DNA of 64,000 nt from Patescibacteria group bacterium. GTDB taxonomy: Bacteria > Patescibacteriota > JAQUNI01. Each line of letters starts with the position of its first letter. Position 1 is the first letter of the stretch. This document shows positions 2,790 to 61,255 of the stretch, one piece after another. The stretch covers positions 143,451-207,450 of the forward strand of contig JAQUNI010000001.1 of NCBI GenBank assembly GCA_028717685.1. Reading direction: 5' to 3'. The translations under genes and the position numbers were made by a program. The notes below the pieces were generated by a model that saw only the letters and a program-made list of their open reading frames with translations, made no database searches and was not told the origin of the DNA.

Positions 2790-4124
2790 TCATAATCCCT
2801 GGTTTTTTAATACTGTTATCAATCGAGGAGTTAACTGATTGATATCCCCCGCGCCCATAATCATGACTACATCGTTACGACGTATATTCTTCAATAAATA
2901 ATGGATGATTTCTGAAAAATGTTCCGAATAAACCGCTTGGGGGCGTTTTCTGCTTATTTCCCGCGCCAGCTTTTGGCTTAAGACGGTTAAATTCGCTTTA
3001 CTGATTTCATCGCGACCCAAAACACCAAAAATTTTCGTAATCATCACACGATCCGCGTCTTGGAAAGCCTCGCTGAATCCCCGAAACAATTTCTCCGTGC
3101 GCTGAATTTGGTGAGGCTGATAAACACACCAAATTCTTCGCTTGCCATATTTCTGCCGCGCCGCCCTCAAGGTCGCCCGAATTTCCGTCGGATGATGAGC
3201 ATAATCATCTATAACTGTCACTTCTTTATCATATTTAATTTCAAACCTCCGCCAAGCGCCGGTATAGCCATCTAGAGCTTTCAAAATTATTTCTTCTTTT
3301 ATACCTAAAACCTTCCCCACTGCAAAAGCCGCTAAGGCATTTTTGACATTGTGCTCGCCGGTAATTTTTAAAGCATGCTCTATTGCCTTCCGCGGTCCTT
3401 TTTCATAATCAATGATTTTGATTCCTTTCTTAACAATGAAACAATGAAACAATGAAACAATATTACTAACGGCAATCAAAAAACCACCTTGCGGCAATAA
3501 TTTCACAAAATTCTTAAAAGCCGCTTGAATATCTTTTAGGTCTTTATAATAGTCAAGGTGGTCCTCTTCAATGTTTGTAATCACGATAATATCTGGATGA
3601 TAATTCAAAAAAGCTCTTTTGTATTCGTCCGCTTCAATCACTAAATATTTGCTTTCGCCCAAACGCGCGTTCGCATTATTTAACTCTTTTAACTTGCTGC
3701 CAATAATAATTGCGGGGTCTAATCCGGCTTTTAACAATATTAAAGAAATCATTCCGGTGGTTGTGGTTTTTCCGTGGGTGCCGGAAACGCAAAGCGTAAA
3801 ATATTTTTTGGTAAGTTCTCCCAGAGCTTCCGGATAAGTGAGACTTCTAATGCCTCGTGCTTTCGCTTCCCGCAATTCAGAATTATTTTCGGAAATGGCT
3901 AAGTTATAAACCACCAAATTAGTATTTAAAGGCAAATTTCCCTTTTGATGTTTGCCAATCTTGACTTGCGCGCCTAATTTTCTTAAATCCTTTATCGTTT
4001 CCGAATCCGCTAAATCTGAACCCGAAATCTTGTATCCTTTTTCTAAATAAATCCGCGCTAAGCCCGAAATTCCAATCCCGCCAATGCCGATAAAATGGAT
4101 TTTCACTTTTTTCTTTATTGACAT
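2790..4124 (-). CDS. murC: UDP-N-acetylmuramate--L-alanine ligase
   Basis: 444 aa. Contains the N-terminal GIGGIGISGLA motif and the Mur ligase P-loop GTHGKTTTTGMI. It also contains an in-frame 8-bp x3 tandem repeat (aacaatga) at 3431-3460. Confidence 0.92.
   Translation of the reverse strand: MSIKKKVKIHFIGIGGIGISGLARIYLEKGYKISGSDLADSETIKDLRKLGAQVKIGKHQKGNLPLNTNLVVYNLAISENNSELREAKARGIRSLTYPEALGELTKKYFTLCVSGTHGKTTTTGMISLILLKAGLDPAIIIGSKLKELNNANARLGESKYLVIEADEYKRAFLNYHPDIIVITNIEEDHLDYYKDLKDIQAAFKNFVKLLPQGGFLIAVSNIVSLFHCFIVKKGIKIIDYEKGPRKAIEHALKITGEHNVKNALAAFAVGKVLGIKEEIILKALDGYTGAWRRFEIKYDKEVTVIDDYAHHPTEIRATLRAARQKYGKRRIWCVYQPHQIQRTEKLFRGFSEAFQDADRVMITKIFGVLGRDEISKANLTVLSQKLAREISRKRPQAVYSEHFSEIIHYLLKNIRRNDVVMIMGAGDINQLTPRLITVLKNQGL
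3431..3460. repeat. Tandem 8-mer repeat (AACAATGA x3.5) inside the murC coding sequence
   Basis: aacaatgaaacaatgaaacaatgaaacaat is translated in frame as VSLFHCFIV. Related TGAAACA palindromes occur at 18318-18412 and 39801-39850. Confidence 0.7.
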
Positions 4125-4229
4125 ATAATAAAATATGTTCTATATTCAATGGATTGTTTCTATTGTTTTTGTTCTTTGTAATATATCATATATTGAGGGT
4201 ATTTAACTGCGAAGCGGGAGGTATGGATA

Positions 4230-6504: not shown

Positions 6505-6588
6505 TGATAACGAATTACGAATTTCGAATCACGAATTACGGAAAACCAATTTATAACCGTGATTCGTAATTCTTAATTCGTGAATCGA
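6505..6588. repeat. ATTCGTAATTCG-type heptamer and inverted repeats in the murG-ftsW spacer
   Basis: cgaattacgaatttcgaatcacgaattacg ... gtgattcgtaattcttaattcgtgaatcg. This is the same motif family as the in-frame repeats in atpB and the giant gene. Confidence 0.55.
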
Positions 6589-7680: not shown

Positions 7681-7725
7681 ATCAAAGTTAAAAGTTAAAA
7701 GTGCAAAGTTAAAAGTTCAGTTCAA
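7681..7725 (-). promoter_or_regulatory. CUUUUAA-type heptamer leader array upstream of ftsW
   Basis: The coding strand reads gaacttttaactttgcacttttaacttttaactttgatttg followed by ATG. Confidence 0.45.
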
Positions 7726-10725: not shown

Positions 10726-10740
10726 AGATGATTAACAAAA

Positions 10741-10905
10741 AAATAATCTAAAACATCTCTGAAAATTTCTAATTTTCAATAAATCAATTTTTAAACCTCT
10801 CACAGAATAAAGTTTATTGTATTTGATTTGATTAAAGGCTTGATGGGGATTTGAGATTTGAAAATTAAAAGAATTAAAAATTTAATAAAAATTGAAAATT
10901 AGAAA
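10741..10905. repeat. Family A inverted-repeat element, copy 2, upstream of gpmI
   Basis: The left arm is tgaaaatttctaattttcaataaatcaattttt. The right arm is aaaatttaataaaaattgaaaattagaaattagaaatt. Confidence 0.6.
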
Positions 10906-12198: not shown

Positions 12199-12235
12199 AA
12201 ATTAAATTTAAAATTCAAAACTAAAAATGAAAAAT

Positions 12236-12345
12236 TATCATCGCTTTGCGAGATCTCGCGAAGCGAGACAATGCAAAATTTTAAAAATTTTTATCATTTT
12301 TACATTTTAATTTGTCATTTTGATTTTTAATTTTTACACTTTACA
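12236..12345. repeat. Family C palindrome (TCGCTTYGCGAGATCTCGCGAAGCGA) plus TCATTTT heptamer tail
   Basis: A 26-bp perfect palindrome centred on AGATCT. A near-identical 60-bp copy lies at 59580-59650, and a partial copy at 56286-56320. Confidence 0.6.
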
Positions 12346-14145: not shown

Positions 14146-14149
14146 TTAT

Positions 14150-14298
14150 GAATAAATTTTTAATTTTCAATTTCTAATTCTTTTAATTTATAAACCATTT
14201 ACCCAATGGAAAATTTAAAATTGCTAATGGGTTTTGAAAATTCATTCATTAAAAATTTAATGAAAATTAAAAATTAGAAATTGAAAATTCTTTATCGT
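14150..14298. repeat. Family A inverted-repeat element, copy 3
   Basis: The left arm is aaatttttaattttcaatttctaattcttttaattt. The right arm is aaaaatttaatgaaaattaaaaattagaaattgaaaatt. The centre is acccaatggaaaat...gctaatgggtt. Confidence 0.6.
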
Positions 14299-14300
14299 CA

Positions 14301-18279: not shown

Positions 18280-18317
18280 AGAATTCTAATAAGAAAATGC
18301 ATTAAAGAAGTATGTAT

Positions 18318-18412
18318 AATTCAATCATTGTTTCATTGTTGTTTTATTTTAGCAATGAAACAATGGAGCGAGGGCGAAGCCCGAGCGAGAACAATGAAAC
18401 AATGATTCTGTA
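18318..18412. repeat. TGAAACA-motif inverted repeats (caatcattgtttcattgttg...caatgaaacaatg...aacaatgaaacaatgattc)
   Basis: Same motif as the murC in-frame 8-mer repeat and as 39801-39850. Confidence 0.55.
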
Positions 18413-18414
18413 AA

Positions 18415-19896: not shown

Positions 19897-19899
19897 AGA

Positions 19900-20028
19900 A
19901 AAATTTTCAATTTTCAGTTTCTAATTTCTATTAAATTTTTAATGAAATAATTTTTAAACAATAAAAAACTACAGCTTAGGAATTAAAAATTAGAAATTTA
20001 ATAAAAATTAATAATTGATCATTGAAAA
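19900..20028. repeat. Family A inverted-repeat element, copy 4
   Basis: The left arm is attttcaattttcagtttctaatttctattaaattttt. The right arm is aattaaaaattagaaatttaataaaaatt. Confidence 0.55.
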
Positions 20029-21360: not shown

Positions 21361-21361
21361 A

Positions 21362-21517
21362 AGGTGTAAAAATAATTTCCAATTTTCAATTACTAATTTC
21401 TATTAAATTTTCAATTACTTAATTTTTAAACTATTTGCCCCGTTTGGAAATTTTTCATTTCTAACGGCGTTTGAAAATTGATTCATTAAAAATTTAATGA
21501 AAATTAAAAATTAGAAA
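21362..21517. repeat. Family A inverted-repeat element, copy 5, with a family B palindromic core
   Basis: The left arm is aatttccaattttcaattactaatttctattaaatttt. The right arm is aaaaatttaatgaaaattaaaaattagaaattaaaaatt. The core is ccccgtttggaaatttttcatttctaacggcg. Confidence 0.6.
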
Positions 21518-24077: not shown

Positions 24078-24084
24078 AGATGTA

Positions 24085-24245
24085 TGATTAAAATTATTCT
24101 AATTGACCTAATTATTCTAATTATTCTAAAAAATGACCAATGTCCAAGCACCAATGAATCAATTAATAACAGAATTAGGTAATTGGGATTTAGTTATTAG
24201 GATTTATTTAGGTTAATTAGAACAATTAGAATAATTAGAATAATT
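24085..24245. repeat. Family E nonamer array element (AGAATAATT / AGGTTAATT units in inverted arms)
   Basis: aattattctaattgacctaattattctaattattctaa ... ttaggttaattagaacaattagaataattagaataatt. A second copy is at 40455-40590. Confidence 0.6.
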
Positions 24246-24246
24246 T

Positions 24247-26464: not shown

Positions 26465-29400
26465 TTAATCTTCGCCTTTCTTTTCTCCCCCTTCTTTGAT
26501 TATCCACCAATTAAATTCCGTATCTTCTGACACTTCTTCCAGAGCAGAAACGGTAAAACTTTTCTCGCCCACTTCAGACAAATAAATAAATGTGGAAGAT
26601 AGTGGGGTTATACCAATAAATGAATCTTTGGTTACTTCCTCATTCTCAAAAACTGCGTCTTTTTTTCCTGCTTCAATAACACCTGTGCCTGTGATTATAT
26701 TGGTTATCTTACCTACAACCTCTAAATCACCTTTCACCACCACTTTCGGTTCGGGCACAGTGTCATTTGCTTCCCCGGGATTCAATTCCAGAATGCCAGT
26801 TTCCGAGAGAATCCTGCCCGAAACAAGCTTTAGCTCCCCTTTCACCTTTACATTCCCGTCCTTATCTACCGCGAAGTTCTCGCTATTAATCTCTAAGCCT
26901 GTGGCAGCATCCAGAACAAGGTATTTGTTGGGGTCGCCGATTATTACTTTGTCCTCCACAATCTTTACAATCTGCTGTAAATTCTGTGTTTCTTCTTCTA
27001 GTTCTTGAATCCTGGCGGTATTCGCTTGGTTGGATTCCATTACTGTTAAAATAGAGGCGCTTAAAGTGTTTAATTGATTGGAGACATTCTCCAGATTGCT
27101 CAAACTGTCTACTAGGGTTTGGAGGGTGCTTTGCAGTGATTCTAGATCAACTTGCTCGGAAGAAGCCCCCTCTACCATTTGTGCTGGCGCTGTGTCAGCA
27201 TCATTTTCCGTAATTTGTGATTCGTAATTCGTAATTCGGGTCTCCAGATCCTGAATCCTTGATTCTTGATCTTTGATTCTTGATTCTAAAGACAGAATTC
27301 CTGATTCCTGATTCCCTATCCCTAATTCCAAGCCAGTGAGACGCGAGGTCGTGTCGCCCGCGGAAATACCAAGTTCATTCTGCACTAATTGCATATTATC
27401 ATCTATGACCGATAGCTTTTGCTGCTGCTCCTTGAGCACCTCATTCTGATAAAGGGAGATCCGTTCATATTTGATTGCGTCAGGTCTGCCTTGCTCGTCA
27501 TATATTACAAGGTTAGAAAGGCCTAAAGCGTCAAATTCTTCGGCAATAAAGCCGACATCCCTCTTTCCTGTTGCTTTATCAATAAAGGAGGTAGGTCTTG
27601 CTTCTAGAATCTTGGTAAAGTCATCTTGCAGGGTCTGCACATCATCTTTGTATCGCAAAGAGGAAGTAGAACGGTAGACACTGCCCGTGGTCGTATCAAT
27701 AAACATATTGGCGGCGGAAGCGGAAGTGTCTATATTTGCAATGACAAACTTGGTGCCAGGGGCGCTCGTGCCGATACCGATCGCGCCCGTGGAGGTAATC
27801 ACGAAGGCGGGCGTTGCCCCACCTAAAGTAGCAGCAGTTTCAATCTTGAATTTATCGCTATCGCTGTCATCAACTCCCACGGAGAATTTAGTAGAATCAG
27901 CAATTTTAAAGTCTAAAATAGGATCACCAGAAGCTTTATTTAAAGAAAGAAGATTGTCTGGCGTGCTCGTCCCGATGCCGACGTTTCCGCTCATTATGGA
28001 CATCCCGCCTTGATAGATATGATTAGTTGACACAACATTCATTTCAGATTTGCCAGAGGTCATTACTTGGTGTGTGCCACCACTCCAATTCCAAGACACG
28101 GCGACAAACAAACCATTGCCATAGGTTACTGACATCCACCAATTTGATTCGGGCGCGGTTCTAGTTGTCCAGGTGATGCCATCGGGTGAAGTCATTACTC
28201 GGTTAGTGTCAGTTAGACCAACGGCGACAAACAAACCATTGCCATAGGTTACTGAATTCCAAGAATCTGCTACTGCGGTTCTAGCTGTCCAGGTGATACC
28301 ATCAGGCGAAGTCATTACTCGGTGTGTGCCACTGTGACCAACTGCCACAAACAAACCATTGCCATAAGTTACTGCATACCACGTATTTGCTTCGGCTGCG
28401 GTTCTAGCTGTCCAGGTAATGCCATCGGGCGAAGTCATTACCCGGTTGGTGCCATTATAAGCGACGGCGACAAACAAACCATTGCCATAGGTTACTGAAT
28501 ACCACGAATTTGCTTCGGGCGCGGTTCGGGCTGTCCAAGTGATGCCGTCAGGCGAAGTCATTACTCGGTGTGTGCCGCTGTAAGCAACTGCGACAAACAA
28601 GCCATTGCCATAAGTTACTCCTTCCCATTTATTTGCTTCGGCCGCGGTTCGGGCTGTCCAAGTGATGCCATCAGGAGAAGTCATTACTCGGTGTGTGCCA
28701 GTTTCAGCGACTGCCACGAATAAACCATTGCCATAAGTGACCCAATTCCACCCATTTGCTTCGGCTGCAGTTCGGGCTGTCCAGGTGATGCCATCGGGCG
28801 AAGTCATTACTCGGTTGGTGCCATTATAAGAGACGGCGACAAACAAGCCATTGCCATAAGCTACCCCATTCCACGTATTTGCTTCGGTCGCGGTTCGGGC
28901 TATCCAGGAAGTTCCTTTGGATATGATGTTGCCAACAACTTCTAACTTCTCGCCTGGTGTTGTCGTCCCCACCCCAAGCCTGTTATTCGTGTCATCCCAG
29001 TAAAAATTAGCGTTATCTTGAGCCAGCGCGCCTGCGGCATCAGTGAAAACCACCGAGCCTTGGGTAAAACCAGGGGTAATGGTGCCGATAACATTGCCAT
29101 AGATTGTGCCGTCAACCTCTAAAACATCCTCTACATAGAGGTCTCCGTCTCCTGTGGCATAATTCACTGTTCCGCCATTGCCAATAAAGACGTTGCGGTT
29201 AAACCAAGCGTCTTGATGGACGCGCAGAGTGCCTGCTGTTTCCACATCCCCTGTTTTGCCGTTAACAATAAATTTGTCATCGTCTATGTAGATTCCGCCA
29301 TTTGCCTCTAGAATGCCGGTGAGCTTGGTCTGACCATCTACGGTAAGATTATTGTAAAGATGGGCATCTTTAATCACAATCAGTTCTTGACCGACTTTTA

Positions 29401-30409
29401 CATTACCTGCTACATCAAGCTTATGCTGGGGGTATTTAGTGCCAATGCCTACTTGATCATTAGTAGTATCAACATAGAGAGCCTTTGTTCCGACCGTGAA
29501 GTTGCCCCCAACATCCACACTCTTTTGCAATTCAGTTGACCCTTTAACTTCAATACCACTACCAAAATATACTTTCCCAAGCAGGCTCAAGTCCTGTGAT
29601 GTGCTGGCACCGTTAGTGGTAACATTCTGTAAATTGATATTATTGGAAGAGGCATTAGAGACTATCTTGGGGATAGAGTCGCCTAAAACAATCTCTGAAG
29701 ATGGATGGGATTCCGATGTTTGTTCCGTAGGGGAAGAGGCTTGCGGTTTAATCTTGCTGTTTAAGGCTAGATCGTCTGTTTGAAGATTATGGATTATGGA
29801 TCCTGTATTTTGGTCAACATTTTTTAGTAAACTACTAAATACTTTTAATGGGAAATATCCTCTTTCCGCAGAAACACCTCTCACAAAAACCAGAGTATTG
29901 GCGAAAAGGACTATGAGGATCAAAAGAGTTAAGAAAACGGGTCTAAAACGAGGAGGCGGAACAACAAATCTGGACCAAAAGGACAACGATGGTTTTAGGT
30001 TTTTCAGGATTTTATTCTTGAAAACGGATTTGAAGCGGAGCAATGTGGAAGATGATTCAGATTGGGGGGATAACAATAATTTCAGGTCTTCAAAAACTTT
30101 GAAGCTCTTGATTGGCGCCTTTACCCTGTTAGACAGTAACCCCCTTAAAGCCTCTGGTCTCTTACGGAATAAACATCTAATGGAGCCAGGGCAGTTTGTT
30201 AGCCCCGTTAGAAATAAATTTCTAAACGGGGTTAGAGAACAAGGTTCTCTAACGGGGTTTACTGACCCTAACGGTTTACAGGTGAAACCGAGAGCAAGAC
30301 ATCGGGAGCGTATCTTAAACATAAGATGAGAATATTTTTTATGAATACAAAACCCACCCCTTGAAAACAGAGAAATAATTTTTGAAACTATAGGGCTTTT
30401 TGTTTGCAT
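26465..30409 (-). CDS. Giant cell-surface protein. Layout: N-terminal signal anchor, ~7 Asp-box-like beta-propeller repeats, GIGT tail-fibre-like motifs, Peptidase_S74-like intramolecular chaperone domain, C-terminal coiled coil
   Basis: 1314-aa ORF. It contains repeats of ~40 aa (NRVMTSPDGITWTARTAAEANxWxxVTYGNGLFVAV), GIGT motifs (VGIGTKYPQHKLDVAGNV, IGIGTSAPGTKFVIA), a chaperone-like segment (SLRYKDDVQTL...GFIAEEFDALGLSNLVIYDEQG) and heptad-rich ESRI repeats. A family B repeat at 30203-30258 lies inside the 5' end of the ORF, so the true start is probably downstream, for example TTG 29987 or TTG 29923 just before the VFLTLLILIVLFANTLVFV anchor. Confidence 0.7.
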   Translation of the reverse strand: MQTKSPIVSKIISLFSRGGFCIHKKYSHLMFKIRSRCLALGFTCKPLGSVNPVREPCSLTPFRNLFLTGLTNCPGSIRCLFRKRPEALRGLLSNRVKAPIKSFKVFEDLKLLLSPQSESSSTLLRFKSVFKNKILKNLKPSLSFWSRFVVPPPRFRPVFLTLLILIVLFANTLVFVRGVSAERGYFPLKVFSSLLKNVDQNTGSIIHNLQTDDLALNSKIKPQASSPTEQTSESHPSSEIVLGDSIPKIVSNASSNNINLQNVTTNGASTSQDLSLLGKVYFGSGIEVKGSTELQKSVDVGGNFTVGTKALYVDTTNDQVGIGTKYPQHKLDVAGNVKVGQELIVIKDAHLYNNLTVDGQTKLTGILEANGGIYIDDDKFIVNGKTGDVETAGTLRVHQDAWFNRNVFIGNGGTVNYATGDGDLYVEDVLEVDGTIYGNVIGTITPGFTQGSVVFTDAAGALAQDNANFYWDDTNNRLGVGTTTPGEKLEVVGNIISKGTSWIARTATEANTWNGVAYGNGLFVAVSYNGTNRVMTSPDGITWTARTAAEANGWNWVTYGNGLFVAVAETGTHRVMTSPDGITWTARTAAEANKWEGVTYGNGLFVAVAYSGTHRVMTSPDGITWTARTAPEANSWYSVTYGNGLFVAVAYNGTNRVMTSPDGITWTARTAAEANTWYAVTYGNGLFVAVGHSGTHRVMTSPDGITWTARTAVADSWNSVTYGNGLFVAVGLTDTNRVMTSPDGITWTTRTAPESNWWMSVTYGNGLFVAVSWNWSGGTHQVMTSGKSEMNVVSTNHIYQGGMSIMSGNVGIGTSTPDNLLSLNKASGDPILDFKIADSTKFSVGVDDSDSDKFKIETAATLGGATPAFVITSTGAIGIGTSAPGTKFVIANIDTSASAANMFIDTTTGSVYRSTSSLRYKDDVQTLQDDFTKILEARPTSFIDKATGKRDVGFIAEEFDALGLSNLVIYDEQGRPDAIKYERISLYQNEVLKEQQQKLSVIDDNMQLVQNELGISAGDTTSRLTGLELGIGNQESGILSLESRIKDQESRIQDLETRITNYESQITENDADTAPAQMVEGASSEQVDLESLQSTLQTLVDSLSNLENVSNQLNTLSASILTVMESNQANTARIQELEEETQNLQQIVKIVEDKVIIGDPNKYLVLDAATGLEINSENFAVDKDGNVKVKGELKLVSGRILSETGILELNPGEANDTVPEPKVVVKGDLEVVGKITNIITGTGVIEAGKKDAVFENEEVTKDSFIGITPLSSTFIYLSEVGEKSFTVSALEEVSEDTEFNWWIIKEGGEKKGED
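30203..30258. repeat. Family B palindromic unit (CCCCGTTAGAAAT-aaa-ATTTCTAAACGGGG + TTAGAGAAC-aa-GGTTCTCTAACGGGG)
   Basis: Two adjacent perfect hairpins. Copies or relatives lie at 48381-48427, 8997-9105, 21436-21470 and 56204-56240. Confidence 0.65.
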
Positions 30410-34507: not shown

Positions 34508-35935
34508 TTATCTCTTAAAATACTTCTCAATCATTTCCGGCTTCACTCTCTTTAACTCGGACTGCGGTAAAATAGACAAAAGTTCCCAGCCCAAACTCAA
34601 TGTTTGAATAATGTCACGATCCTCATATTCACCTTGGCGGACGAATTTGTCTTCAAAGAGAGAGGCAAACTTTAAATATTTTTTATCGGTTTCATCCAAA
34701 CTCTCTTCGCCCAAAATCACGGCTAATTCTTCCACTTCCTTACCGCGGGCATAAGAAGCGAATAACTGATTTAAAACACCGGAATGATCCTCGCGGGTTT
34801 TACCTTCGCCGATTCCTTTGTCTTTAAGCCGGGAAAGGGAAGGTAAAACATCCACGGGCGGAAAAATCCCCTTGCGGTGCAATTCGCGGCTAAACATAAT
34901 TTGGCCTTCGGTAATGTAACCGGTTAAATCGGGCACGGGATGGGTTTTGTCGTCCTCGGGCATGGAAAGGATCGGAATCTGCGTGATGGAACCGGGCTTG
35001 CCTTTAATGCGCCCCGCGCGTTCATAAATTGTAGAAAGGTCGGTATAAAGATAACCCGGATAACCACGCCGACCCGGAATTTCTTTGCGCGCCGCCGAAA
35101 CTTCGCGCAAGGCTTCACAATAATTAGTCAGATCAGACATAATGACTAGTACATCCATTCCCTTTTCAAAAGCCAAATATTCAGCGCAGGTTAAAGCCAT
35201 TCTGGGCGTTGCAATCCGCTCCACCACGGGATCATTAGCAAGGTTAATAAACAGCACCGAACGCTCAATCGCTCCGGTTTTCTTAAAATCATTTTGAAAA
35301 AAATTCGCCTCATCAAAAGTGATACCCATCGCCACAAACACCACCGCAAACTTCGTCTCTTTTCGGTCTTTATTCCGTGATTCGTGATTCGTGATTCGTG
35401 ATTCGGTATGCCGTAAATCCCAGCGCATCTTTGCCTGCCTCGCGATTTGAGCCGCAAGGCGCGCGTGCGGCAGACCAGCGCCCGAAAAAATAGGCAGTTT
35501 CTGACCACGCACCAGCGTGTTCATGCCGTCAATCGTGGAAACGCCGGTTTGAATAAATTCATCGGGATAAGAACGGGCATAAGGATTTAAAGGCAAACCA
35601 TTGATATCTAATTCTTGGTCTGGAATAATTCTAGGTCCGCCATCAATCGGCTTGCCCGCGCCAGAAAACACCCGACCTAGAATATCCTCGGATACCGGCA
35701 GTCTCAAACCTCGTCCCAAGAATTTGACCTTGGTGCCAGCACGCGGCACGCCTTGCGGCGCTTCAAAGAGCTGGATTAAGGTGAGCTCGCGTCCGGCTTC
35801 CAGAACCTTGCCTAGTATTTTGCGACCTTCTTTTGTTTCCACTTCCACTAATTCTTCATACTTTGCGCCTTCAATCTTTTCCAAAATTATTAAAGGTCCC
35901 GCAATTTCTTTCACTGTTTTATAAGCTTTGGACAT
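34508..35935 (-). CDS. atpB: V/A-type ATP synthase subunit B (regulatory), with an in-frame heptamer-repeat insertion
   Basis: 475 aa with a V-type B fold. At 35374-35401 the sequence (gattcgt)x4 is translated as [12 protein letters not shown] inside an approximately 25-aa loop insertion. Confidence 0.92.
35374..35401. repeat. Heptanucleotide tandem repeat (GATTCGT x4) inside the atpB coding sequence
   Basis: gtgattcgtgattcgtgattcgtgattcg. The unit length of 7 means any copy-number change would shift the frame. Confidence 0.8.
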
Positions 35936-35937
35936 AA

Positions 35938-35985
35938 AAATAAAGTTAAAAGTTAAAAGTGAAAAGGTAAAAGCTATTGCACATC
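35938..35985 (-). promoter_or_regulatory. CUUUUAA-type heptamer leader array upstream of atpB
   Basis: The coding strand reads gcaatagcttttaccttttcacttttaacttttaactttatttttATG. Confidence 0.45.
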
Positions 35986-35987
35986 AA

Positions 35988-37739
35988 TTACACCACTTTC
36001 TCTATCTTCTCCCAAACCTTTTTATACTCTGCCTCTATTTTATCTTCGGGAATAAATTTGAGTCGGGCAATATCTTCAATAATTTCCTGCTTAAATAATG
36101 CCTTCAAGTCCAACTCGTTAACTTTGGAAAGCGCTAAATCGTAGAAATCAATAATAATCTTTAACATACCGTATTGTTTAGATAAGGAGGTATAGGTATC
36201 AATTTCATCAAAGGCATTCTGATGCAAAAAGTCTTCCCGAATCATCCGGGCAACGCGCAAGATTAATTGGTCCCGCGAACCTAAAGCGTCAAAACCGACC
36301 AAACGCACAATCTCTTCCAGATTGGCTTCTTCCTGCAAAATTTCCATTGCTCTTTGACGATACTGGTTAAAATCCGCGGCGACATTATTTTTAAAATACT
36401 CCTCTAAATTTTCAGTGTATAAAGAATAGCTGGTCAGCCAATTAATCGCTGGGAAATGGCGCTTGTAGGCGAGCGCTGAATCCAAAGCCCAAAAAACCTT
36501 GGTAACCCGCAAAGTGTTTTGCGTCACCGGTTCAGAAAAATCGCCGCCCGGCGGCGAGACCGCGCCAATCACGGACAAAGAGCCAACGCGCTTCTCCGAT
36601 CCTAAACACTCCACGCGGCCAGCGCGTTCATAAAACGCCGCCGTCCGCGTGCCGAGATACGCAGGATAACCTTCTTCACCGGGCATCTCCTCCAGCCGTC
36701 CTGACATTTCCCGCAAAGCCTCGGCCCAGCGCGAAGTGGAATCCGCGGTAAGCGCGACTTTGTAACCCATATCACGATAATATTCAGCGATGGTAATCCC
36801 GGTGTAAATAGACGCTTCGCGCGCCGCCACAGGCATATTAGAAGTATTGGCAATCAAAATCGTGCGCTCCATTAATTGTCTTCCCGATTTCGGATCTTTC
36901 AATTCCGGAAATTCAATCAAAACATCGGTCATCTCATTCCCCCGCTCCCCGCAGCCGATAAAAACGATAATCTCCGCATCTGCCCATTTAGCTAACTGAT
37001 GCTGAACCACAGTCTTCCCGGACCCAAAAGGACCCGGCACGCAAGCTGTGCCGCCTTGGGCAAGCGGGAAAAAGGTATCAATCACTCTCTGTCCTGAAGC
37101 CATTAAAGTATCAATGGGTAAATTTTGTTTCACCGGCCGCGGAATCCGAATCGGCCAACGCTGCAACATTGTAATCTCTTGTTCGCCTTGCGCTGTTTTA
37201 ATCTTCGCGACAATATCTTCCACTTTGGATTGACCAGCCTTTATTGCCGTGATTTTCCCCCGCGCACCCTGAGGCACCATAATTTTATGCATAATCAAGG
37301 AGGTTTCTTGAACCGTACCTAGAATATCGCCTTCCTTCACAACATCCCCTTCCTTTTTTACAGGCTTAAAATCCCATTCCTTTTCGCGGTCAATCCCCGG
37401 TACTTCCATACCCCTCGCAATAAAAGCGCCAGACTTGGCAAAAATCAAATCTAATGGTCTTTGAATGCCGTCATAGATGGCTTTAATCATTCCCGGTCCC
37501 AGTTCCACAGACAAAGGTCTGCCAGTTGTCTCCACTAACTCTCCCGGTCCAACACCGGCGGTGTCCTCATATACTTGAATGGAGGCTTGGTCTTGGTTTA
37601 AGCCAATAATCTCGCCGATTAATTTTTTCTCCCCCACTTTGACCACATCAAACATCCGCGCATTAGGGATGCCTTCGGCGATCACAAGCGGACCGGAAAC
37701 TTTAACAATGATTCCCTGTTTATTTTCTAAATTAGACAT
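35988..37739 (-). CDS. atpA: V/A-type ATP synthase subunit A (catalytic)
   Basis: 583 aa. Contains the Walker A motif GPFGSGKT and the non-homologous region typical of V/A-type A subunits. Confidence 0.92.
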
Positions 37740-37740
37740 A

Positions 37741-37790
37741 GTTTAAAAAAGCTAAAAATTAAAAGCGAAAAGCTAAAAGTTAAAATTCTT
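37741..37790 (-). promoter_or_regulatory. Heptamer leader array (AGCTTTT/AACTTTT) upstream of atpA
   Basis: The coding strand reads gaattttaacttttagcttttcgcttttaatttttagcttttttaaactATG. Confidence 0.4.
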
Positions 37791-37794
37791 CTAA

Positions 37795-39210: not shown

Positions 39211-39801
39211 TTACTGAAATAAAATCTTCGCTACTTCACTTTCTAATTCCTGCCGCTTTTCTGCCATCAGATGGTCAAAAATATAATCTTCTTCCATAAA
39301 ATCGCTGGCCGCGATAAAACCGCCTTGACCATTCACTATCTTACTGGATAGCTTAAAACTGGAATGCTTTGGCACTAATTTTGCCAAAACCGATTGACTA
39401 TTCGCAGTCGGGATAATTTTCACTTTTTCCCCGCCCAAATGCTTGCGGACGTTTTTCAAAAACATTTCTAAAAGCTTCTGTCGCGCCACAGGCTCTTGTT
39501 TAGTTAAAGATTCTAAAGCACGGCTAAAAACTTCATCAATTAATGCTTGCTTTTTGCGTAAAAGATTATTCTTTGCTTCCCAGATGGCTTGGATCCTCAT
39601 CTGCTCTCTCAAAGCCTCCTGTAAATGCTTCATCTCTGCGGTAAAAACGCGATATCGCTCTTGGATTCTCTGCTTCACCTCATCCCTCATCTTTTGCGCC
39701 TCTTCTTTGGCTCCGGCTAAAATTTGCTCGGCTTCTTTCGCGCCTTCCGCTAAAATTTTCTCTTTGATGATTTCTAAAGACATCAAAATCCATTGCTTCA
39801 T
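39211..39801 (-). CDS. atpE: V/A-type ATP synthase subunit E
   Basis: 196 aa with an N-terminal long coiled coil (IIKEKILAEGAKEAEQILAGAKEEAQKMRDEVKQRIQE). Confidence 0.7.
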   Translation of the reverse strand: MKQWILMSLEIIKEKILAEGAKEAEQILAGAKEEAQKMRDEVKQRIQERYRVFTAEMKHLQEALREQMRIQAIWEAKNNLLRKKQALIDEVFSRALESLTKQEPVARQKLLEMFLKNVRKHLGGEKVKIIPTANSQSVLAKLVPKHSSFKLSSKIVNGQGGFIAASDFMEEDYIFDHLMAEKRQELESEVAKILFQ

Positions 39802-39900
39802 TGTTTCACCGTTTCATTGTTGAAAATCCGACAATGAAACAACCTCTCGCCTTTAACTAAAGATAAAAGAGTGAAAACAATGTAACAATAGCCTGTTACT

Positions 39901-40371: not shown

Positions 40372-40454
40372 AAATTTAGGACGAATTTATGTCGGGGAAA
40401 TTTATTTGTATTTAACTAATCTTCCCACATAAATCCGCTATTAAACTTTATAAA

Positions 40455-40590
40455 TTTCTAATTCCTAATTGACCTAATTAACCTAAACAATAACTAATGA
40501 TTAATGCCAAAATGTCTAAATATTTGGTCATTCTGAAATTGGTCATTGGACATTATTTAGAATAATTAGAATAATTAGAACAATTAGGTT
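40455..40590. repeat. Family E nonamer array element, copy 2 (between atpI and atpK)
   Basis: ctaattgacctaattaacctaaac ... ttagaataattagaataattagaacaattaggttaatt. It uses the same 9-mer units as 24085-24245, in reversed order. Confidence 0.6.
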
Positions 40591-45020: not shown

Positions 45021-45294
45021 GTAGAAATATAAATGGCATTACAAAAAATTGTCTTTAACATAAAAGGCTTGCTCGAAATAGCAAGCCAGCTAAAAAAATA
45101 CTATCTCCTAATATCTAGGTTATGTCTTTTTTACAGGTTCTCTTTTTATTTCAGGACAGGGCCATTTCCCGCAATACAAACCGCCAATTAAATCTTGATC
45201 TTCAGTATGAATAAAACTCAAAACTACAATTTAAAAAATTTTCATTTTAAATCATAGTTTTGAATTTGCAATTTGAGTTTTGAATTTTCAATAG

Positions 45295-45368
45295 TGCGCG
45301 CGGAGGGAATCGAACCCCCGACCGTCTCCTTAAAAGGGAGCTGCTCTACCTAACTGAGCTACGCGCGC
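45295..45368 (-). tRNA. tRNA-Lys (anticodon UUU)
   Basis: The minus strand reads gcgcgcgTAgctcagttaggtagagcAgctccCTTTTAAggagacggtcgggggttcgattccctccgcgcgcA. It folds as a cloverleaf with a T-loop TTCGATT. CCA is not encoded. Confidence 0.85.
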
Positions 45369-47247: not shown

Positions 47248-47250
47248 AGT

Positions 47251-47350
47251 TTGTAATCAGTAATTGGTAATTAGTAACTAGTAATTCCGCAGACCAAATG
47301 TAGTTATCCCCAATTACTGATTACTGATTACTAGTTACTAATTACTAATT
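47251..47350. repeat. 100-bp near-palindrome built from TTACTRA heptamers, in the DUF296-dnaJ spacer
   Basis: The left arm is gtaatcagtaattggtaattagtaactagtaatt. The right arm is aattactgattactgattactagttactaattactaatt. Confidence 0.7.
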
Positions 47351-48428: not shown

Positions 48429-50393
<1,965 letters not shown>

Positions 50394-51608: not shown

Positions 51609-51771
51609 TATTAATTTATGAATTGTGAATTGTGAATCCCACCTACGCCCTTCGGGCTTCCACCTTCGCTGAAGCTTCGGCGGACAGGTCGGTGGGCAGG
51701 CATGAATTAGGGATTGAATTTTATAATTTATTATTCCTGATTCCTTATTCCTACTTCCTGATTCCTAACTA

Positions 51772-55954: not shown

Positions 55955-56007
55955 AACAAAAGACCCTCCTTAATATTAGAATCTGAAATCTGGAATTTAT
56001 AATCTCG

Positions 56008-56079
56008 TACCGCCACGGGGATTTGAACCCCGGTTACTGGGCTGAGAACCCAGTGTCCTAACCACTAGACGATAGCGGC
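56008..56079 (-). tRNA. tRNA-Glu (anticodon CUC)
   Basis: The minus strand reads gccgctaTCgtctagtggttaggacActgggTTCTCAGcccagtaaccggggttcaaatccccgtggcggtA. It folds as a cloverleaf with two G-U pairs in the acceptor stem. CCA is not encoded. Confidence 0.8.
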
Positions 56080-56140
56080 AAAAATAGAAATCATTATAAA
56101 TTAAGATAATTTTATCAAATTCAGTTTGAGCACATTTACA

Positions 56141-56334
56141 AATTTTGTTCTCAAATTTTCAATTCTCAATTTTTAATTTTCATTAAATTTTTAATGAATA
56201 AATTTTCAAACCCCGTTAGAAATGATAAATTTCTAAACAGGGCAAACAGTTTAAAAATTAAGTAATTGGAAATTTAATAGAAATTGTCTCGCTATGCGAG
56301 ATCTGGCGAAGCCAGAAAAATTAGAAATTAAAAA
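56141..56334. repeat. Family A inverted-repeat element, copy 6, with family B and C cores
   Basis: The left arm is aaattttcaattctcaatttttaattttcattaaattttt. The cores are ccccgttagaaatgataaatttctaaacaggg and tgtctcgctatgcgagatctggcgaagcca. The right arm is aaaattagaaattaaaaatt. Confidence 0.55.
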
Positions 56335-57621: not shown

Positions 57622-57782
57622 AACTCTAAATTTTTATTTCTTAATTTTTAATTTTTAATTTTTAACTAATATTTATTTGCTTATTGATTTATTGCATTGC
57701 CAGGGTCAAATAATTCAATAAGACATTAAAACAATAAAAATCAGCTAAAAATTAAGAAATAAAAATCAAAAATTAAGCATTC
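57622..57782. repeat. Family A inverted-repeat element, copy 7
   Basis: The left arm is aaatttttatttcttaatttttaatttttaatttttaac. The right arm is gctaaaaattaagaaataaaaatcaaaaattaag. Confidence 0.55.
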
Positions 57783-59543: not shown

Positions 59544-59579
59544 GATAAAATCAAAATTTAAAAATCAAAATGTAAAATG

Positions 59580-59740
59580 ATCATCGCTTCGCGAGATCTC
59601 GCGAAGCGAGACAATGTAAAATTTTAAAAATTCTTTTCATTTTAACATTTTAAACTGCCTGCCCGCTCACAAGCTTCGCGGGAGTGCGAGGCGGGCGGGT
59701 CATTTTGATTTTTGCCTGCCTGGCGGCAGACAGGATTTTT
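59580..59740. repeat. Family C palindrome copy 2 immediately followed by family D palindrome copy 2
   Basis: atcatcgcttcgcgagatctcgcgaagcgagacaatgtaaaattttaaaaatt ... ctgcctgcccgctcacaagcttcgcgggagtgcgaggcgggcggg ... gcctgcctggcggcagacagg. Confidence 0.6.
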
Positions 59741-59745
59741 GCATT

Positions 59746-61085: not shown

Positions 61086-61255
61086 CTTGAGGACAATTTT
61101 TAATTTCTAATTTTCAATTTTCATTAAATTTCTATTTACTTAATTTTTAAACAAATAAAGATCAAACTCTCATAATCTGCTTACCGTAAAATCTAAGGGT
61201 TTAGAAATTATTTCATTAAAAAATTTAATAGAAATTAGAAATTGAAAATTAGAAA
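61086..61255. repeat. Family A inverted-repeat element, copy 8
   Basis: The left arm is aatttttaatttctaattttcaattttcattaaattt. The right arm, aaatttaatagaaattagaaattgaaaattagaaatt, is its reverse complement. Confidence 0.65.

Follow-up and report, generated by a model that had tools for sequence, protein, structure and literature searches.

Tandem repeats of 7 or 8 bp that are read in frame inside atpB, murC and a large surface-type gene of this Patescibacteria genome are probably representatives of a dispersed repeat DNA of the lineage that has settled at permissive protein sites, where it is homogenised or replaced and is kept in frame by purifying selection. The analysis covered one stretch of 64,000 nucleotides, called the window throughout, which has a GC content of 41% and carries nearly every gene on the minus strand. 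Its housekeeping genes, as assigned with Pfam, include murB, murC, murG, ftsW, enolase and glycosyltransferases as well as hrcA, grpE, dnaK, dnaJ, mraW, ftsI and another Mur ligase, and the V/A-type ATPase operon is complete. The closest relatives of its AtpB are annotated as Candidatus Doudnabacteria or Parcubacteria group. The arrays in atpB, murC and the large gene, reported in an initial annotation, are real, and their translations match the frame of homologues on both sides (Table 1). The coordinates first given for the atpB and murC arrays (35374-35401 and 3431-3460) were right within 1-4 nt, whereas the three copies ascribed to murC are in fact 3.75.

Table 1. Repeat arrays, their host genes and related intergenic elements, in window coordinates.
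Feature	Position	Strand	Description
murC, UDP-N-acetylmuramate--L-alanine ligase	2790..4124	minus	444 aa, intact; Pfam
Perfect octamer array (ATTGTTTC)x3.75, 30 bp	3432..3461	minus	Read as IVSLFHCFIV within murC
Intergenic hairpin element	6505..6588	minus	Both arms of tandem GAATCAC/GAATTAC heptamers, the unit family of the atpB array
Intergenic element	18290..18414	minus	ATTGTTTC octamer arms, direct and inverted, with a GC-rich core between them
1314-aa ORF, the earlier 'giant gene'	26465..30409	minus	41-aa protein repeats and an array-encoded segment
Three adjacent imperfect heptamer arrays	27209..27329	minus	(GGAATCA)~5, (GAATCAA)~5, (GAATTAC)~4
V/A-type ATPase subunit B gene (atpB)	34508..35935	minus	475 aa, intact; Pfam
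atpB hypervariable loop-coding segment, aa 176-192	35360..35410	minus	Helix ..AAQIARQAK before, strand FAVVF after
Perfect heptamer array (GAATCAC)x4.3, 30 bp	35376..35405	minus	In frame within atpB; sequence reading and TRF
Second ATTGTTTC-type octamer-arm element, inverted pair	39802..39900	minus	Intergenic; fold z -3.7
Intergenic element	51609..51771	minus	(CAGGAAT)n and (AATTCAC)n arrays

Repeats of this kind are a general property of the window. A strict scan, in which at least 18 of 21 lag matches were required and block shuffles served as control, returned 15 arrays, namely 11 of period 7, one of period 8 and three of period 9, against none in block-shuffled sequence, and it found no arrays of periods 5, 6, 10 or 11 in the window. 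A chance origin of the arrays is excluded. Twelve of the 15 strict arrays of periods 7-9 are intergenic, and non-coding DNA, which makes up 16% of the window, holds 9 of the 11 strict heptamer arrays. In the same way, identity at lag 7 reaches 0.337 in intergenic DNA for a background of about 0.29, and peaks at lags 7 and 14 are seen in intergenic DNA only, coding DNA showing the codon period alone. Several heptamer units coexist, among them AATCACG, AATTACG, AATCAGG, AATCAGT and AACTTTT, and a pattern beginning with AAT or AAC is common to all perfect heptamer units. The longest perfect short-period arrays of the window are those in atpB and murC, perfect intergenic heptamer tracts reaching at most 2.9 copies. 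Such perfection would be odd for neutral passengers, and selection for perfect repeats is possible. An 8-mer TRF hit at the 3' end of dnaK (48433-48461) was judged to be a purine-rich coding coincidence.

The coding arrays share their unit families with the repeats that fill the spacers. The GAATCAC-type 21-mer has 8 matches in the window where 0.01 were expected, and these lie in atpB, in both arms of the element at 6505-6588 and in the large gene, nowhere else. The ATTGTTTC dimer likewise has 8 matches for 0.2 expected, and they are confined to murC and the intergenic elements at 18327-18403 and 39792-39889. The murC leader holds a related pair, spaced by 9 bp, at 4153-4167. Since the matches of both the atpB and the murC unit include intergenic copies, the family identity proposed in the initial annotation holds.

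In the spacers, the typical layout is a left arm, a core and a right arm, the arms being inverted tandem 7-9-mers, and RNA folding predicts that these elements form long hairpins (z -3.7 to -5.5). For instance, both arms of the element at 6505-6588 terminate in ..GAATCACGG, and its RNA fold has an energy of -29.5 kcal/mol (z -5.2). The element at 18290-18414 is built on an octamer unit identical to that of the murC array and folds with z -5.5, and the one at 51609-51771 is akin to the first large-gene array as well as to the atpB loops of two relatives, L001 and L004. One-armed arrays are also found directly 5' of several start codons. Arrays were considered as a replacement for the Shine-Dalgarno sequence and this was set aside, an SD-like motif being found in 1 of 12 array-preceded genes versus 14 of 45 others, counts that are too small. 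The intragenic arrays, by contrast with the spacer elements, consist of one arm only and show no RNA structure (z +0.5 and -0.6).

The atpB product is identical to the NCBI protein MDD5626567.1. Its array is read as CGTGATT x4.3 on the plus strand and as GAATCAC on the coding strand, and can also be written (AATCACG)x4.3. Aligned to PDB sequences, the loop containing it exceeds that of E. hirae V1-B by 19 aa, so that the 'loop insertion' of the earlier description fits AtpB, and judged from this alignment the loop would have the P-loop helix on one side and the following strand on the other; an AlphaFold model built from 26 sequences (pLDDT 59) is too poor for placing the loop or for showing it at the surface. 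Among orthologues at 88-96% amino acid identity, this loop alone is hypervariable. Orthologue DNA is 94-96% identical outside the loop and 38-51% within it, and between the window and L001 the figures are 95.7% for the rest of the gene and 37.8% for the loop. The loop DNA of relatives is heptamer-periodic too and in the same register, with other units: GAATTAG, GAAGTAG and GAGGGAG in L001 and L004, GAATCAA and GAGGTAA together with a GC-rich core in L003. The more distant L006 and L008 have short loops without clear repeat, and the loops of P0256 and P0003 differ in length by an in-frame 10 aa. By back-translation, a perfect heptamer-compatible window of 10 aa was found in 1 of 122 AtpB homologues, the window's own. 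As relatives share the register and the perfect array occurs here only, the ancestor shared by the lineages of the window, L001, L003 and L004 probably carried a heptamer array already, which would since have been remodelled by processes other than point mutation and recently homogenised in the window genome.

The MurC product is 100% identical to NCBI MDD5626539.1, and its translation contains the peptide VSLFHCFIV first read there. Sequence reading and TRF give the array as AACAATGA x3.75 on the plus strand and ATTGTTTC on the coding strand. Here, the term 'loop insertion' does not apply. Aligned to H. influenzae MurC, the array peptide NIVSLFHCFIVKKG pairs with DDPVLME-LVPKVG and adds no net insertion, and in an AlphaFold model from 120 sequences (mean pLDDT 92) array residues 222-231 fall within helical segments H220-224 and H227-233, at pLDDT 88-93. 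The refuting case set out in the initial annotation, distant orthologues with the same residues, was not seen among 120 Patescibacteria MurC proteins: an octamer template fits 5 of them, each at 66% identity or more, and the array is therefore lineage-specific yet old within its lineage.

The DNA of close relatives shows how this site changes. The window reads (ATTGTTTC)x3 + ATTGTT, L090 (88% amino acid identity) reads (ATTGTTCA)x3 + ATTGTT and L091 (66%) reads (ATTGTTAA)x2 (ATTGTTAT) + ATTGTT, so that the array measures exactly 30 bp in three lineages at 66-88% identity. In L092 (67%), the array is split by a 33-bp GC-rich insert and followed by a second palindromic insert, and in L093 (85%) a palindromic element of about 110 bp (TCATTGCGAGG...CCTCGCAATGA) replaces the array. 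All five are in frame, and the site accommodates inserts of 11-37 aa in relatives. Among the relatives examined, no out-of-frame allele of atpB or murC was found, and the length variants of both genes are all multiples of three. The two variable positions of the murC unit shift jointly in all units (TC, CA or AA) and are read in three different codon phases, which places their covariation beyond protein-level selection; on this comparison, what is seen at murC is concerted evolution at the DNA level and not protein selection. The turnover and homogenisation of repeats at the level of the lineage, which had been raised as a possibility, thus exists according to the DNA of the atpB and murC relatives. 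In addition, both in the window and in L091 the octamer arms of the spacers have the unit variant of the murC array carried by that contig. This sharing, seen on two contigs, is suggestive of ectopic conversion.

The large gene was called giant in the initial annotation; its arrays are indeed in frame, although the product is only 1314 aa. A region of this ORF resembles tail-fibre intramolecular chaperone domains. The arrays encode ..GNQESGILSLESRIKDQESRIQDLETRITNYESQI.., and the translation of the ORF includes ESRIKDQESRIQDLETRITNYESQ. In alignments, the counterpart of the array stretch is LESRVKNQELRIQDLESKISNIESGI in P0241 (68% identity) and a coiled-coil-like stretch in P0243 (51% identity), so the segment taken for a loop insertion sits within a stretch that is conserved at the protein level in homologues. 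Degenerate heptamers are present as well in L095, the DNA that encodes P0241.

Taken with the repeats of the spacers, the intragenic arrays would be coding-region copies of a pervasive 7-9 bp tandem-repeat DNA of the lineage, which elsewhere forms the arms of intergenic hairpin elements. The host sites would be those where the protein tolerates nearly any sequence provided that the length is right, that is, the AtpB loop, a short helical segment in the central domain of MurC and a coiled-coil-like linker of the large protein. Evolution of the arrays would then proceed otherwise than by point mutation, through joint homogenisation of units, swaps for other arrays or GC-rich palindromic elements, and in-frame changes of length. 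Out-of-frame products would be purged by purifying selection, and only in-frame variants are therefore visible. The copying itself could proceed by ectopic gene conversion, with intergenic arrays as donors, or by slipped-strand mispairing followed by repair. When 47 ORFs of the window were compared with Pfam, no transposase, RAYT-type gene or other copying enzyme was found. The array peptides themselves may be functionally neutral passengers.

A stronger form of the same proposal can be put forward tentatively, and we consider it possible: CPR/Patescibacteria genomes with a hitherto undescribed, actively copying system of 7-9 bp tandem-repeat hairpins, its unit variants homogenised across dispersed loci within a genome, that recurrently colonises permissive sites of core enzymes, the atpB and murC arrays being kept perfect by gene conversion or a trans-acting factor and not by chance survival. 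A hot spot in MurC around residues 220-240 would be part of it. The back-translations of the 120 MurC proteins from Patescibacteria, which count in favour of the main reading as well, place in the 20-residue bin 220-239 15 of the 23 windows compatible with near-perfect heptamers and all 8 octamer-compatible windows, and a minor second cluster of compatible windows is found near residues 280-300. Heptamer-compatible peptides from other Patescibacteria lineages in the 220-239 bin include IQNSKFKIQN and RIKNKELRIK, and ITNYELGIKNK is a further candidate from the same site. This points to a repeat hot spot at MurC 220-240 across the sampled Patescibacteria, as judged for the other lineages from their peptides.

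The arrays could also be embedded cis-elements, either protein binding sites or RNA-pairing partners of the intergenic arms, with selection keeping them perfect and unit variants co-evolving across the genome. We regard this as unlikely. It would agree with the fact that the most perfect arrays of the window are the coding ones, with the unit variant that murC has in common with the intergenic arms of its own contig in two lineages, with the constant length of the murC array across deep divergence and with the one-armed arrays just before several start codons, which recall TAACTGA repeats (PMC4679880). However, the many units within one genome do not suit one dedicated binder, a perfect atpB array is confined to this genome among the homologues compared, and close relatives swap or split the array with palindromic elements or inserts while the gene stays intact. 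Moreover, the coding arrays take part in no RNA structure, and an Rfam search of the window returned two tRNAs only and no match for the arrays. Pairing of the murC array with the complementary motif AACAATAGAAACAAT of the murC leader (4153-4167) was considered and rejected: L090 retains the TTTC-type motif although its ORF array is of the TTCA type, and L093 has the same motif although its array is gone.

Much less probable is phase variation, in which slippage by one unit would reversibly switch atpB, murC or the large gene. The idea has an obvious basis, as 7- and 8-bp units are not multiples of three, a one-unit slip therefore shifts the frame, and these units lie inside intact ORFs. The large gene is moreover of the surface or tail-fibre type, the usual phase-variable class, and it provides the one case of a broken frame. 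In L095 (68% amino acid identity), a 16-bp indel in the first heptamer array splits the reading frame, the upstream frame hits a stop and the called ORF restarts inside the array. This is the sole out-of-frame allele among all loci examined, it concerns a non-core surface-type gene, and as it comes from a single 1.1-kb metagenome contig it may reflect misassembly or a pseudogene. On the other hand, tracts of 3.75-4.3 units are short for the high-frequency slippage of phase-variable simple sequence repeats. The contingency mechanism suggested in the initial annotation likewise finds no support in the murC array, which keeps exactly 30 bp in three lineages and lies in a single-copy core cell-wall gene, or in the relatives of atpB and murC examined, all in frame; the V-ATPase is assumed to be essential.

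Finally, it is hardly credible that the DNA period is a coincidence or a by-product of selection on the peptide (for instance for an amphipathic helix or a coiled coil of heptads), the genome being AT-rich, even if three 7-bp units make one 7-aa heptad, the large-gene segment has a conserved coiled-coil-like counterpart in homologues, the most distant at 51% identity, the constant ATTGTT of the murC unit encodes hydrophobic I, V, L, F/L, C, I and V, and the helical segment so encoded has DDPVLMELVPKV as its aligned counterpart in H. influenzae MurC, since the DNA repeats are perfect including synonymous positions and out of codon phase, their variable positions covary across three codon phases, identical units stand in non-coding spacers, shuffles yield no arrays and a compatible window occurs in just 1 of 122 AtpB homologues. 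For atpB and murC, the DNA comparisons largely refute it.

Homogenised repeat DNA at permissive sites has partial parallels in known systems. Rickettsia palindromic elements (RPE) form a dispersed family that is found in intergenic DNA and in frame in housekeeping genes, where they are translated into additional peptide at positions that the fold allows, and they are lineage-specific relative to orthologues; they were reportedly described by Ogata et al. in 2000. They are the closest concept to the present arrays. Like RPE, the arrays of the window belong to a dispersed family that is also present in the intergenic DNA of the same genome, and at these very sites complete palindromic elements are read in frame in the relatives L093, L092 and L003. 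An in-frame insertion of the RPE type is seen in AtpB, which is 19 aa longer, while MurC shows no net insertion but a lineage-specific sequence. Unlike RPE, which measure about 100-150 bp, the intragenic copies of the window are 30-bp single-armed arrays without hairpin potential, the MurC peptide is structured, the arrays show concerted evolution of their units, and the host is a CPR bacterium and not an alphaproteobacterium. RPE are also mentioned in a review of MITEs (PMC10969869).

In sequence class, the closest relatives are heptamer long simple sequence repeats such as TAACTGA. Long SSRs with units of 5-11 nt, including TAACTGA, are known from Beggiatoaceae, cyanobacteria and Bacteroidetes (MacGregor 2015, PMC4679880, which summarises Mrazek et al. 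2007), and a translational role has been proposed for the TAACTGA repeats (PMC4679880). The arrays of the window resemble these and the cyanobacterial STRR heptamers in that they have 2-6 copies, are enriched in intergenic DNA, often lie 5' of starts and are few in ORFs. They differ in that many unit variants coexist, usually in inverted pairs forming hairpins, and that the intragenic copies lie in the middle of core enzymes, whereas those of TAACTGA are reported from protein termini. Dimers of TAACTGA, CCCCAGT, CCCCAAT, TTGGTCA and CAACAGT are absent from the window.

Contingency loci are simple sequence repeats known from Neisseria, Haemophilus and Campylobacter. The window shares with them a tandem repeat inside an ORF whose unit is not a multiple of three, but copy number is low, the hosts are core housekeeping genes, the array keeps its length across lineages, and the atpB and murC alleles of the relatives examined are all in frame; only the large surface-type ORF belongs to the gene class concerned. 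In Borgs, the intragenic repeat units are reportedly multiples of three, whereas here they are of 7 or 8 bp, it is only as a whole that a tract stays in frame, and a fold is predicted for the MurC segment. Borg tandem repeats are reported to yield new intrinsically disordered protein regions (PMC9879509), and both cases involve fast-evolving tandem DNA, inter- and intragenic, that adds lineage-specific peptide segments. Phase-variable contingency loci are treated further in PMC12721329. TIGR arrays were considered too and set aside, their abstracts giving no link to 7-9-bp hairpin arrays, and a literature search found no description of arrays of this kind in CPR or Doudnabacteria.

In a reduced CPR genome, repeats from the intergenic pool with units that are not triplets are thus found inside core enzymes, even encoding what is modelled as a folded helix in MurC, and they evolve through concerted processes at the DNA level and not by point mutation. 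This makes the system a tractable case of how selfish or slippage-prone DNA makes and reshapes protein segments, of how great a risk of frameshift a minimal genome tolerates, and of whether gene conversion homogenises dispersed arrays. On a practical level, the array sites will mislead marker-gene alignments and phylogenies. They may also seed assembly chimeras, of which P0242 is perhaps one example.

Hairpin elements were found to occupy most intergenic spacers of the window, filling the whole span from stop codon to start codon. Their arms are formed by an inverted pair of tandem 7-, 8- or 9-mers, and some contain a GC-rich core. An AT-rich family of these elements, with the pattern TTTCTAATTTTCAATTT..ATTAAATTTTTAATGAAT.., is present in at least seven window spacers. 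The intergenic hairpin elements of the window had no match in Rfam, and no transposase was found within the window. Near-identical GC-rich palindromic cores (..CATTGTCTCGCTTCGCGAGATCTCGCGAAGCGATGA..), flanked by AT-rich heptamer arms, were also observed in three spacers. Two tRNAs, tRNA-Lys(TTT) and tRNA-Glu(CTC), each lie in a long spacer that also holds heptamer arrays.

Repeat features outside the coding sequences, and associated tRNAs
Feature	Window positions
Intergenic hairpin elements	6505-6588, 47248-47349, 24078-24246, 40372-40588, 18280-18414, 39802-39900, 51609-51771
Family copies	~770-960, 10726-10905, 14146-14300, 19897-20028, 21361-21517, 55955-56334, 57622-57782, 61086-61255
Spacers with GC-rich palindromic cores	12199-12345, 55955-56334, 59544-59745
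One-armed (ACTTTTA)n arrays upstream of S30AE gene, ftsW, atpB, atpA	1331-1377, 7681-7717, 35936-35987, 37740-37794
tRNA-Lys(TTT)	45294-45368
tRNA-Glu(CTC)	56007-56079

The S30AE gene, ftsW, atpB and atpA each have a one-armed and unstructured (ACTTTTA)n array immediately 5' of the start codon, a placement that resembles the start-codon-proximal TAACTGA repeats of Beggiatoaceae, cyanobacteria and Bacteroidetes. In relatives (L001, L003, L004, L006 and L008), the atpF-atpA and atpA-atpB spacers carry arrays in the matching spacers but built from different units, namely CTTGATT, AAATTCA and TTTTCAC. Shine-Dalgarno motifs were seen in one of 12 array-preceded genes as against 14 of 45 others, a weak anticorrelation resting on small counts.

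Repeat DNA also enters the coding sequences of relatives. Comparison of P0010, P0264 and P0267 with P0266, and also of P0003, P0004, P0006 and P0007, showed that AtpB C-termini are lengthened by translation running on into repeat DNA (..KTSLRGATPKERRSNLINIDNFK). The SLRG..RRSNL pattern at these C-termini is a translated TCATTGCGAGG-type palindromic element, which also occurs in frame within MurC of two relatives (L092 and L093). In an alignment of Patescibacteria MurC proteins (A5), heptamer-compatible peptides from other Patescibacteria (KFQVSGFRFQ, YKIQDTKYKI, QSTINNQQLT) form another, minor cluster at residues ~280-300 (window numbering), and this clustering suggests a further permissive insertion site.

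In an 88%-identical relative, atpA contains an intein (Intein_splicing and LAGLIDADG; L008:1-2407, L009:1-2407); the window atpA (35988-37739, 583 aa) has none. MurC and MurB are fused in a single 746-aa ORF of a 66%-identical relative (L091:1010-3250), and in the window they are separate genes with a 455-bp spacer (2335-2789).

In a metagenome contig homologous to window 27209-27329 (L095:100-200), the large-gene homologue has its reading frame broken by a 16-bp indel within the first heptamer array. The break may be a genuine frameshift caused by slippage or the mark of a pseudogene, or it may be an assembly error. The 1314-aa ORF itself holds a tandem DNA repeat of 123 bp (and 369 bp) at 28093-28908, which is translated into a 41-aa repeat unit (..GITWTARTAAEANxWxxVTYGNGLFVAV..) present in about 6.6 copies; the 123-bp repeat is triplet-compatible and other in kind than the heptamer arrays. 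Finally, P0242, from a Logan contig of 1986 bp, begins with the N-terminus of a class-I aminoacyl-tRNA synthetase (Pfam PF09334, PF00133) and continues into a large-protein-like C-terminus. The junction falls exactly on a heptamer-type peptide (..LRIKNQESR..), and P0242 is probably a chimeric assembly or the product of recombination via a shared heptamer array.
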